The position numbers are program-made. Of a stretch of DNA of 64,000 bases, positions 21,001-24,000 are shown in pieces. Where the stretch lies: the NCBI RefSeq assembly GCF_054482595.1, contig NZ_CM137008.1; one strand, 5' to 3'. Positions within the stretch are counted from its first letter, which is position 1. Every line of letters starts with the position of its first letter.

Positions 21001-24000
21001 CTTTCGTGGTGAGGGCAAACAGGCGCTGGGGATTTTCTGCTTCGAGGAACGCGCTGTAGTCATGATGACGCGTAACGGCGGTAAACTCGTGATAGTCCAG
21101 CCCCGCGCGGCGCAGGCGCTTATCGTCCCAGGCAAATCCCATCGGTTCGATGATATGCAGACGAAAGCCGGTATTAGCGCAAAGACGGATGATGTTGCCA
21201 GTATTTGGCGGAATTTCTGGTTCGTAAAGTACGATGTTTAGCATACTGCCCCCTTAGTGCGGGGGCAGGATAGCAGAAAATTGGTGAACCGTGCGGCCTT
21301 TTCCCCTCACCCCGGCCCTCCCCCTGTCTCTTGATCAGGAGATCTGATCAAGAGACAGCTCCCTGAGGGAGAGGGTTAGGGGGAGGGGGCGCAAACGACT
21401 ATGCCGCATTCCCTTTCGCCATGGGAGCCAGTGCCGCAGGCAACTCTTTACCCAGCCCCTGCACCAGCGAATCTTGCGTAATTTCGCTGATCGATTTCGC
21501 GCCAGTCAGCGTCATCGCCACTTTCATCTCTTTTTCGATCAGATTTAGCAGGTTAGCTACACCCGCCTGGCCCGCTGTTGCCAGCGCATACAGGAAAGCA
21601 CGACCCAGCAGTACGGTGTCGGCACCGAGCGCAATCATACGCACGACATCAAGCCCGTTACGAATTCCGCTATCCGCCAGAATGGCTATATCACCTTTCA
21701 CCGCATCTGCAATAGCGGGCAACGCACGAGCGGAAGAGAGTACACCGTCCAGCTGGCGGCCACCGTGGTTAGAAACTACAATCCCATCAGCACCAAAACG
21801 TACTGCATCGCGCGCATCTTCCGGATCGAGGATCCCTTTGATCACCATCGGGCCATCCCAGAAATCGCGGATCCACTCAAGGTCTTTCCATGAGATGGAC
21901 GGATCGAAGTTATTCCCCAGCCAGCCGATGTAATCTTCCAGTCCGGTCGGTTTGCCGAGGTAAGCCGAAATATTTCCTAAATCATGCGGACGACCGTTCA
22001 GGCCCACATCCCACGCCCATTGCGGATGCGTCACCGCCTGCAAATAGCGGCGCATTGCCGCGTTCGGGCCGCTCATTCCAGAATGCGCATCACGATAACG
22101 CGCTCCCGGTGTCGGCATATCCACGGTGAAAACCAGCGTCGAACAACCCGCTGCTTTTGCTCGCTCCAGCGCGTTACGCATAAAGCCGCGATCGCGCAGT
22201 ACATAAAGCTGGAACCACATTGGGCGCTTGATGGCTGGCGCGACTTCTTCAATCGGGCAAACGGAAACCGTCGAGAGAGTAAACGGAATGCCATGCGCAT
22301 CCGCCGCTTTGGCTGCCTGAACTTCGCCGCGTCGCGCATACATGCCACACAAACCTACCGGACCTAGCGCCACCGGCATCGACAATTTCTCATTAAACAG
22401 CGTCGTTTCCAGGCTTAAGTCGGACATGTTTTTCAGAATACGCTGGCGCAGCGCCACTTCTGACAAATCTTCCACGTTGCGGCGCAGCGTGTATTCAGAA
22501 TATGCACCCCCATCCATATAGTGGAACAGGAACGGCGGCAGAATGCGTTGCGCTGCGGCGCGATAATCGCTGGCTGCGGAAATAATCATGCGTTTTTCTC
22601 CCTCGAATGCTCATTATGCTCACCGGGCAGGCGGGTAATCCGTGCGTGGCGAGCCTGATCTTCATCGAATCGTTTCATGGTGGTGTGAACAAAACTAAGG
22701 TGCGCCATCATTGCTTTACGCGCCCCGTCGGCATCACCAGCAAAAATGGCGTCAATGACAGCCTGATGTTGTTCGGTCAGTTGTGAAAAAACCGGTGGCA
22801 CCAGATACATCCGCTGACGGCTATGCTTCACTGAGGATTGCAGGACATCGAAGAAACCGCGCATGGTTTGCAGCAGCACGATGTTATGTGAGGCTTCGGC
22901 AATCGCCAGATGAAAACGAACGTCCGCTTGTGAGGCGATATCCGGGTCTTCACTTAGCGTTGCTTCAAAGCAAAGCTGAATCTTTTCTTTGTCGCCAGGT
23001 GTGGCGCGCATTGCCGCATGCCATGCGGTGCTGGCTTCAATGGCGTAGCGGGCTTCCAGAATATCGAAACTGTAATCCGGATCATCGGCCATCAGCGTTT
23101 TTAGCGGCTGGACGATGTTTTGCTCCGACCATGTGTCATGACGCCAGCGAATAAACGTCCCGCCGCCGCGTCGACTGAGCAGCACGCCTTCGCTCACCAG
23201 TTTTGCCAGCGCCTCGCGCAGTGAATTACGCGATACGCCGAGTTGCATCGCCAGTTGACGTTCAGCGGGCAACTTCATGCCCGCTTCCAGGTTTTTTTCA
23301 TCAATCAGCGCCCGCACACGATCGGCAACCTCGTCTGACAGGCGTCTGGGTAAAACAATCATTAAGGAATCATCCACGTTAAGACATAGGCCTGAAGCGT
23401 GGTGATCACGCCCACCATACAGGTGAAGATCAGGCTGTGTTTGACAGTAAAGCGGAACAAATCAGACTCTTTGCCCACCAGGCCTACCGCCGCACAGGCG
23501 ATAGCGATAGATTGCGGGGAGATCATTTTACCGGTGACGCCACCGGTGGTATTGGCGGCAACCAGCAACAGATCAGAGACGCCAATTTGTTGTGCTGCGG
23601 TGGCTTGCAGCGCGGCGAACAGGGCGTTAGATGAGGTATCCGACCCAGTCAGGAATACCCCCAGCCAGCCGAGGAACGGCGAGAAGAAGGTGAATGCATG
23701 ACCGGTGTGCGCCAGTGCCAGCGCCAGTGTTGATGACAGTCCGGAATAGTTCGAAATAAAGGCGAATGCCAGCACCATACCGATGGAGTAGATGGGCAGA
23801 GCCAGTTCTTTCAGCGTGCTGCCGAAGGTGCTGATAGCGTCAGACGGTTTCATCTTCAGCCAGACAACCGAGAGCAGCGCAGCAAACAGAATGGCGGTGC
23901 CAGTGGCAGAGAACCAGTCGAACTTAAACACGGCGGCATAGGCTGTAGCCTCGCTGACTACTGGCGGCATACGGGCAACCAGTTTATCGAGGTACGGCAC

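Follow-up and report, generated by a model that had tools for sequence, protein, structure and literature searches.

The trmL (yibK) locus of Escherichia coli raises the question of which RNA is affected by a perfect, GC-rich hairpin that stands directly in front of the trmL start codon. We analyzed this hairpin in a 64,000-nucleotide stretch of DNA (contig NZ_CM137008.1 of RefSeq assembly GCF_054482595.1, hereafter the window), which is E. coli DNA. According to the open reading frame (ORF) call and the RefSeq annotation of identical E. coli loci, trmL is a 157 aa coding sequence (CDS) on the minus strand (20771-21244), and lldD, which closes the lldPRD operon and from which read-through RNA originates in E. 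coli, lies upstream on the same strand (21399-22589). TrmL is a tRNA 2'-O-methyltransferase responsible for 2'-O-methylation at the wobble position of two leucine tRNAs. The hairpin is a real and conserved feature which is probably functional, and it is assembled from known mechanisms. We consider it probable, with real room for doubt, that formation of the hairpin is restricted to RNA that reads through from the upstream operon. On such RNA it would hide the trmL Shine-Dalgarno (SD) sequence, admit Rho and cap the 3' end of the upstream mRNA. A literature search found no paper on the arrangement or the conservation of the trmL hairpin.

Sequence and stability of the hairpin

On the minus (coding) strand the hairpin reads CTGCCCCC-GCACUAA-GGGGGCAG-U-AUG. 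Eight perfect pairs join a 5' arm at 21261-21268 (CUGCCCCC in RNA sense) to a 3' arm at 21246-21253 across a 7-nt loop, GCACUAA, at 21254-21260, and the stem ends 1 nt 5' of the trmL ATG (21244-21242). The sequence, a repeat finder and folding all confirm this structure, which the preliminary description had reported as a perfect 8-bp hairpin with a 7-nt loop abutting the trmL start. The repeat finder gives arms at 21243-21253 and 21261-21271, so that the pairing reaches 11 nt at 91%. The 35 nt 5' of the start codon on the coding strand read TGCTATCCTGCCCCCGCACTAAGGGGGCAGT-ATG. The stem is retained in both the minimum free energy and the centroid fold of the whole lldD-trmL spacer, the energy of the hairpin alone is about -18.1 kcal/mol, and seven of its eight pairs are G:C.

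A single perfect 8-bp stem is in itself unremarkable. The window holds 42 such stems with loops of 3-9 nt (about 30 of them distinct) compared with 7.1 +/- 3.5 in dinucleotide shuffles, while stems with at least seven G/C pairs are scarcer (7 seen, 0.31 expected from the shuffles). The significance of the trmL hairpin thus rests on conservation and co-variation of the arms and not on chance statistics. An Rfam 15 covariance-model scan at a permissive E-value gave no match to the hairpin, only sub-threshold chance microRNA-type matches on the neighbouring palindrome.

The 3' arm holds the G-run of the SD sequence. This sequence, UAAGGGGG (consensus UAAGGAGG), is read at 21249-21256 on the minus strand, spans the loop and the 3' arm, and leaves 4 nt between the G-run and the AUG.

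The trmL promoter divides the hairpin

A scan for TrmL relatives gave 80 loci, from which 57 enterobacterial sequences were used to compare the upstream regions (MAFFT alignment A1). The G-run of the SD sequence is almost invariant in this alignment. The only invariant upstream positions in these Enterobacterales sequences are T-12, A-11 and T-7 (alignment columns T19, A20 and T24), the TG at -15/-14 shows conservation of at least 90%, and no conserved -35 element is seen in the alignment upstream of trmL. Such a pattern marks a conserved sigma-70 promoter of the extended -10 type, TGnTAnnnT. In the window, the extended -10 element TGcTATCCT occupies 21267-21275 on the minus strand (TG at 21275-21274, hexamer TATCCT at 21272-21267), and it is followed by a GC-rich discriminator, GCCCCC, at 21261-21266, which is GCGCCCC in most other genera. 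The 5' arm of the hairpin is therefore promoter DNA, as it is made up of the two final hexamer bases together with the entire discriminator.

Published data place the transcription start site (TSS) at the hairpin loop. Differential RNA sequencing (dRNA-seq) of Salmonella SL1344 gives a primary, triphosphate-enriched TSS for yibK at 3910889, i.e., 17 nt before the ATG of a CDS that starts at 3910906. The corresponding promoter sequence from -50 to +1 ends ...TGCTATTCTGCCCCCG(+1), and is also given as CTGCCCCCG / AAATTTCTGCTATTCTGCCCCCG(+1). The Salmonella +1 is thus the G just after the arm CTGCCCCC, which is the first nucleotide of the loop. For E. coli, the construct with the "entire 5' UTR" (untranslated region) of trmL by Adams et al. 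(2021; PMC7815308) has the first bases GCACTAAGGGGGCAG (GCACTAAGG). In the window, the base located 7 nt past T-7 is the G that opens the loop, position 21260. From the Salmonella mapping and the design of the E. coli construct, the trmL +1 falls on this first loop nucleotide.

A start at the first loop base means that the mRNA made from the trmL promoter lacks the 5' arm and cannot form the hairpin. It follows that the hairpin cannot regulate that mRNA in cis, and can act only on RNA coming from lldD. The preliminary description had placed the hairpin in the leader of trmL itself, a proposal that would fall if the transcript started downstream of the hairpin; with the start within the loop, this is essentially the situation, which leaves the proposal partly supported, in its structural claim. 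Furthermore, the spacing of exactly 7 nt between the conserved extended -10 element and the +1 argues that the 5' end arises from a promoter and not from a cleavage site.

Predicted burial of the SD sequence on read-through RNA

RNA that enters trmL from upstream carries both arms, and the accessibility of the ribosome-binding region is predicted to differ strongly between the two kinds of RNA. On read-through RNA, positions -15 to +12 are predicted to need 21-22 kcal/mol to open, compared with 5.9 kcal/mol on RNA from +1, and the predicted probability that GGGGG is unpaired is 0.000 and 0.30, respectively. Over the 57 species, the mean predicted opening cost is 16.6 kcal/mol for read-through RNA and 6.2 kcal/mol for RNA from +1. 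These folding results predict that read-through RNA is translationally silent when compared with RNA from the trmL promoter. The suggestion that the hairpin occludes the ribosome-binding region thus holds in so far as the stem covers the trmL SD sequence, at an opening cost of about 21 kcal/mol, but the target is the read-through RNA and not the mRNA of trmL itself.

Two other roles were considered for the structure and rejected. An RNA thermometer does not fit a stem of -18 kcal/mol with seven G:C pairs, which is too stable. An anticodon-loop mimic for autoregulation by TrmL does not fit a loop that varies from 3 to 9 nt and whose conserved bases are the UAA of the SD sequence.

Conservation and co-variation of the arms

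The lldD-trmL spacer is unusually variable among E. coli genomes. It measures 47, 72, 154 (the window, 21245-21398), 185 or 197 bp (K-12), and these variants are whole insertions or deletions of repeat elements among the E. coli loci (L001-L006). All spacer variants examined share the same final ~33 nt, which begin with TCTGCTATCCT and run up to the ATG. The 60 nt around the hairpin are found in exactly one copy in 5420 of the 5426 complete E. coli genomes, with at least 99% identity in 5342. Since this block is single-copy although the spacer upstream varies, the hairpin is not part of the repeat elements, and a classification as a REP or BoxC repeat element was rejected.

Outside E. coli, a comparable hairpin lies 5' of trmL in about 55 of the 57 Enterobacterales species. 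In the upstream region, the box T-TG-TAT-CT stands before a GC-rich hairpin whose end is beside the ATG. The predicted energies range from -9 to -24 kcal/mol with 4-12 pairs. Among the loci from the TrmL scan, the hairpin is absent 5' of trmL in Xenorhabdus, Pasteurellaceae, Rheinheimera and Marinobacter. The stem ends within 2 nt of the AUG, or overlaps its A, in 42 of the 57 species, and the A of the AUG is within the stem in 12 species.

The gene upstream of trmL differs between genera. It is lldD in Escherichia, Enterobacter and Kosakonia, and an MFS-like transporter gene in Citrobacter and Lelliottia, while the place is taken by cpxA, at a distance of 35-63 nt, in Cedecea, Serratia, Erwinia, Pantoea, Yersinia, Hafnia, Edwardsiella, Rahnella, Budvicia and Tatumella. 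Two Yersinia species have a divergent ada-like gene in this place. As the hairpin is kept under differing upstream genes, the element travels with trmL and not with lldD.

Two observations concern the gaps themselves. The 35-63 nt between cpxA and trmL (loci L019, L023, L025, L032-L054, L057-L059, L061 and L073) hold only the -10 box and the hairpin, which makes the hairpin the sole candidate 3' structure for the cpxRA operon in these genomes. In Yersinia artesiana and Y. thracica (L060 and L066), where the divergent ada-like neighbour sends no read-through towards trmL, the hairpin is the weakest of all, with six pairs including G:U and -9.4 kcal/mol. This fits relaxed selection, in what is a single lineage.

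The stem does not keep a fixed register with the -10 element, as its starts range between -3 and +5 after T-7, and the loops vary from 3 to 9 nt. RNAalifold predicted zero pairs on alignment A1 because of this shifting register and the variable loop length. Co-variation was instead seen in an arm-swap test, where the native 5' and 3' halves gave a mean of -16.07 kcal/mol and chimeras between species -13.42 kcal/mol. The native arms are thus better by 2.65 kcal/mol, and none of 20000 permutations was as good. For the four bases that flank the C-run and the G-run, standard pairs form in 64% of the cells; permutation lowers this share to 49% (none of 5000 permutations was as good), and sliding the register lowers it to 30-46%. 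As the second flanking pair, T:A, G:C and C:G alternate among lineages, and the pairs of the outer stem remain complementary despite change (CTG/CAG, GCG/CGC, GCGT/ACGC, TGTG/CATA, GCGG/CCGC and GCTTCGG/CTGAAGC). Stems of 10-12 bp are found in Pantoea, Rahnella and Erwinia. These comparisons of aligned sequences suggest selection on the pairing itself, for which the evidence is good but not conclusive.

RNA 3' end and Rho dependence

Term-seq of E. coli MG1655 has located an RNA 3' end at 3781218, 5 nt past the last paired base of the hairpin, with a Rho score of 3.68, a "Yes" for Rho region and, as an intrinsic terminator, a score of 1.92 against a cut-off of 3 (PMC7815308). The equivalent position in the window is 21241 on the minus strand, a C at +4 of the trmL ORF (supplementary files 1 and 3 of PMC7815308). 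Reads upstream and downstream of this end number 425 and 96 in untreated cells, and 942 and 784 with bicyclomycin (PMC7815308). The strongest Rho signal in the region, with a score of 8.4, lies inside trmL at 3781497 (PMC7815308).

The first ~100 nt of the trmL ORF (21145-21244, minus strand) are C-rich and G-poor, with 29-31% C and 15-17% G, and a second such region lies at +160 to +260. The first region is a candidate for Rho loading on read-through RNA that is not translated. With the trmL fusion of Adams et al., which starts at +1, no effect of Rho was seen, a result that they described as unexplained (PMC7815308). Because this fusion lacks the 5' arm, the absence of a Rho effect is exactly what the mechanism proposed below predicts.

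A class of stable stem-loops without U tracts has been described that mark the 3' ends of transcripts terminated by Rho, protect these ends and have rut sites a short way downstream (Dar and Sorek, 2018; PMC6061677). The trmL hairpin matches this class in its stable stem, the lack of a U tract, the precise 3' end and the read-through that increases when Rho is inhibited, and by analogy it may also protect the upstream mRNA from the exonucleases PNPase and RNase II. The preliminary description had further proposed that the hairpin is a transcript-processing site downstream of lldD. The 3' end located 5 nt past the stem comes close to this, but its appearance is that of a transcript terminated by Rho and protected from exonucleases at its end, and not that of an endonucleolytic site.

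The same data set contains a Rho termination region antisense to trmL, at MG1655 3781526 on the minus strand with a score of 3.36 (PMC7815308). In the window, cysE is on the plus strand and convergent with trmL, and RNA that reads through from cysE into trmL antisense also appears to be terminated by Rho.

Proposed mechanism and alternative explanations

In the mechanism that we propose, the hairpin is split by the trmL TSS, with promoter DNA as the 5' arm, a loop that starts at +1 and the SD sequence as the 3' arm. RNA from the trmL promoter would have a leader of 16-17 nt and a free ribosome-binding site, and would be translated. RNA from upstream, i.e., from lldPRD in Escherichia and from cpxRA or other operons elsewhere, would carry both arms, and the stem of about -18 kcal/mol would bury the SD sequence so that no trmL translation takes place on it. 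The untranslated C-rich trmL ORF would then be exposed to Rho, termination would follow inside trmL, and 3'-to-5' exonucleases might trim the RNA back to the hairpin, leaving a stable 3' end for the upstream mRNA. The elements on which this scheme builds, from the structure, its conservation and the arm co-variation to the promoter, the TSS position, the 3' end and the Rho-dependent region, come from the data above or from published work. Tentatively, the mechanism might be extended to an order-wide, selected discriminator between self and foreign transcripts. The promoter discriminator would then be kept complementary to the SD sequence so that only RNA from the gene's own promoter is translated, while RNA invading from an upstream operon under conditional induction (lldPRD, cpxRA) is silenced, passed to Rho and trimmed. 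We regard this extension as possible, and are less confident of it than of the mechanism itself.

Several points weigh against the proposed mechanism. A simple sigma-70 pattern scan found no promoter at the hairpin; this null result is expected, as the scan requires a -35 element and trmL has none. For E. coli, the TSS is deduced from the design of a cloning primer and not taken from a dRNA-seq table, and the Cappable-seq, SMRT-Cappable-seq and EDL933 TSS supplements, as well as that of one Salmonella paper, have no entry for trmL/yibK. In most genera other than Escherichia, the position at +7 after the -10 element is a C, so the TSS there is not fixed by the Salmonella and E. coli data. The Rho scores span windows of 800 nt and are therefore not specific for the hairpin, and the Term-seq and Rho data are from K-12, which has a different upstream spacer and the same last 60 nt as the window. 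Regarding co-variation, -13.4 of the -16.1 kcal/mol of stem stability persists after the arms are swapped; the C-run and the G-run supply most of the stability, and each of them could be kept separately as discriminator and SD sequence, and the permutation tests ignore phylogeny. Lastly, we infer the translation block on read-through RNA in vivo, its causal link to Rho entry and the insulation of trmL as a selected function.

The last points on stability lead directly to the explanation that the pairing is a by-product without selected function, where a C-rich discriminator and a G-rich SD sequence about 17 nt downstream happen to be complementary. In favour of this, the chimeras still average -13.4 kcal/mol, so that most of the complementarity is owed to the conserved C-run and G-run, and in the two Yersinia species with the divergent ada-like gene only the 6-bp core at -9.4 kcal/mol is left. 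However, chance complementarity does not account for native arms that are 2.65 kcal/mol better than chimeras with 0 of 20000 permutations as good, for bases outside the C- and G-runs that change and yet remain complementary, with stems of 10-12 bp in Pantoea, Rahnella and Erwinia, or for an RNA 3' end in vivo directly past the stem. We therefore find a by-product unlikely. That same 3' end, 5 nt downstream of a GC-rich stem, could also mean that the upstream operon, which is lldPRD here and cpxRA in other genera, ends in an intrinsic (Rho-independent) terminator. This is more plausible in Serratia, where UUUUUAC follows the stem, and in several Pantoea with UUAUGCUU, but at least five T in 8 nt occur in only 6 of the 57 species, so the U tract is unconserved. 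The tail in E. coli, UAUGCUAA, has three U in 8 nt, a terminator pattern scan of the window is silent at the hairpin, the published score of 1.92 is below the cut-off of 3, and the ratio of downstream to upstream reads rises from 96/425 to 784/942 with bicyclomycin. An intrinsic terminator is thus quite unlikely as the general explanation.

The two remaining explanations concern the start of trmL itself. The preliminary description had a hairpin in the trmL leader that tunes translation, or an endonucleolytic site that generates the trmL mRNA. The SD sequence does lie within the stem, and a minor upstream promoter or heterogeneous starts are possible. Yet the primary Salmonella TSS is at the first loop nucleotide, the same base was chosen as the start of the E. 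coli 5' UTR, and it lies exactly 7 nt past the conserved extended -10 element. At -18 kcal/mol the stem is also far too stable for a switch of the thermometer type, and Rfam has no matching family, which together make a role in the trmL leader improbable. The position of the inverted repeat at about -8 to +16, centred on the transcription start, is typical of an operator, and the repeat could in principle bind a dimeric repressor as DNA over the trmL promoter. A protein operator would keep both spacing and half-site sequence, while here the loop measures 3-9 nt, the distance of the stem from the -10 element shifts by up to 8 nt, and the half-sites differ between genera but stay complementary. 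This speaks strongly against an operator, which we consider highly improbable.

If the proposed mechanism is true, about 35 nt would perform four jobs, as promoter, ribosome-binding site, translational block on foreign RNA and protector of the upstream 3' end. The level of TrmL should track growth and not lactate or envelope stress, and the proposed mechanism would account for the lack of Rho dependence in the trmL reporter of Adams et al. If the order-wide discriminator is real, split promoter/SD hairpins could be a general and overlooked means to insulate tightly packed bacterial genes. In genomes with mapped TSSs, such insulators could be searched for by a simple rule, namely a 5' arm upstream of the mapped TSS and a 3' arm over the SD sequence. 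No major concept is altered by this, as every component mechanism is already known.

Similarity to known regulatory systems

One close parallel is the fold-back inhibition of read-through transcripts in IS10/Tn10 and IS50/Tn5, which was reportedly described by Davis, Simons and Kleckner in 1985 and by Schulz and Reznikoff in 1991. As in these elements, the promoter of trmL fires inside a potential stem, and only transcripts from outside carry the upstream arm that pairs with the ribosome-binding region. However, trmL is a chromosomal housekeeping gene and not a transposase gene, its upstream arm is a promoter discriminator, its arrangement is conserved across the order, and the silencing is a prediction.

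The trmL hairpin shares with the stem-loops of Dar and Sorek (PMC6061677) a stable stem without a U-rich tail, a precise 3' end and a C-rich Rho-dependent region beyond it, but differs in that the stem includes the SD sequence of the next gene and overlaps the promoter of that gene. Since the SD sequence of the next gene is within the stem, the stem would also decide the translation of the downstream ORF. With intrinsic terminators the hairpin has in common the GC-rich structure at the end of an operon and, in Serratia and some Pantoea, a U-rich tail; the lack of a U tract in E. coli and most genera, the sub-threshold score and the bicyclomycin-sensitive read-through set it apart.

Leaders that sequester the SD sequence, such as riboswitches, RNA thermometers and the stem in the IS200 tnpA 5' UTR (PMC4513863), also have a stem over the SD sequence. 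In those leaders the stem is in the mRNA of the gene itself and is opened by a signal, whereas the mRNA of trmL lacks one of the arms. No alternative ligand- or temperature-sensitive fold is apparent for the trmL hairpin.

The discriminator offers a further parallel, as GCCCCC or GCGCCCC after a -10 element resembles rrnB P1 and other stringently controlled promoters, and trmL is a gene of the translation apparatus. Unlike rrn P1, the trmL promoter is of the extended -10 type without a -35 element, and control by ppGpp/DksA is a candidate. The yibK mRNA is reported at 0.65-fold in a 6S RNA mutant, where it falls alongside ribosomal-protein genes, and the Salmonella yibK TSS was detected in early but not in late stationary phase.

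Other elements flanking trmL

Most of the lldD-trmL spacer in the window is occupied by a G/C-rich imperfect palindrome at 21303-21388, with 23-nt arms CCCCTCACCCCGGCCCTCCCCCT / AGGGAGAGGGTTAGGGGGAGGGG that match at 78%. It corresponds to the BoxC-like "HPGQ" hairpin/G-quadruplex repeats that have been reported between lldD and trmL (PMC5100583). In K-12, a second Term-seq 3' end (3781065) lies directly past a small hairpin within this BoxC-like element.

Within the G/C-rich repeat, a perfect 15-bp palindrome, CTGTCTCTTGATCAG-GAGAT-CTGATCAAGAGACAG, is found at 21324-21358. Both arms match an IS4-family terminal inverted repeat (ISEc13) and resemble the inside end of IS50. To judge from these matches, the palindrome looks like two abutted transposon ends without an interior, which may be an excision footprint or a minimal miniature inverted-repeat transposable element (MITE). 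The full 59-nt arrangement of transposon ends is present in 795 of the 5426 E. coli genomes, while O157 has one end only and K-12 has none.

On the other side of trmL, a REP-type palindrome, GCCGGATGCGATGTAATCATCTATCCGGC, lies at 20727-20762 in the 52-bp gap between the convergent stop codons of cysE and trmL. It has a weak, sub-threshold match to the Rfam family naRNA4 (23.7 bits compared with a gathering score of 59.5), and it is probably the common 3' end structure of cysE and trmL.

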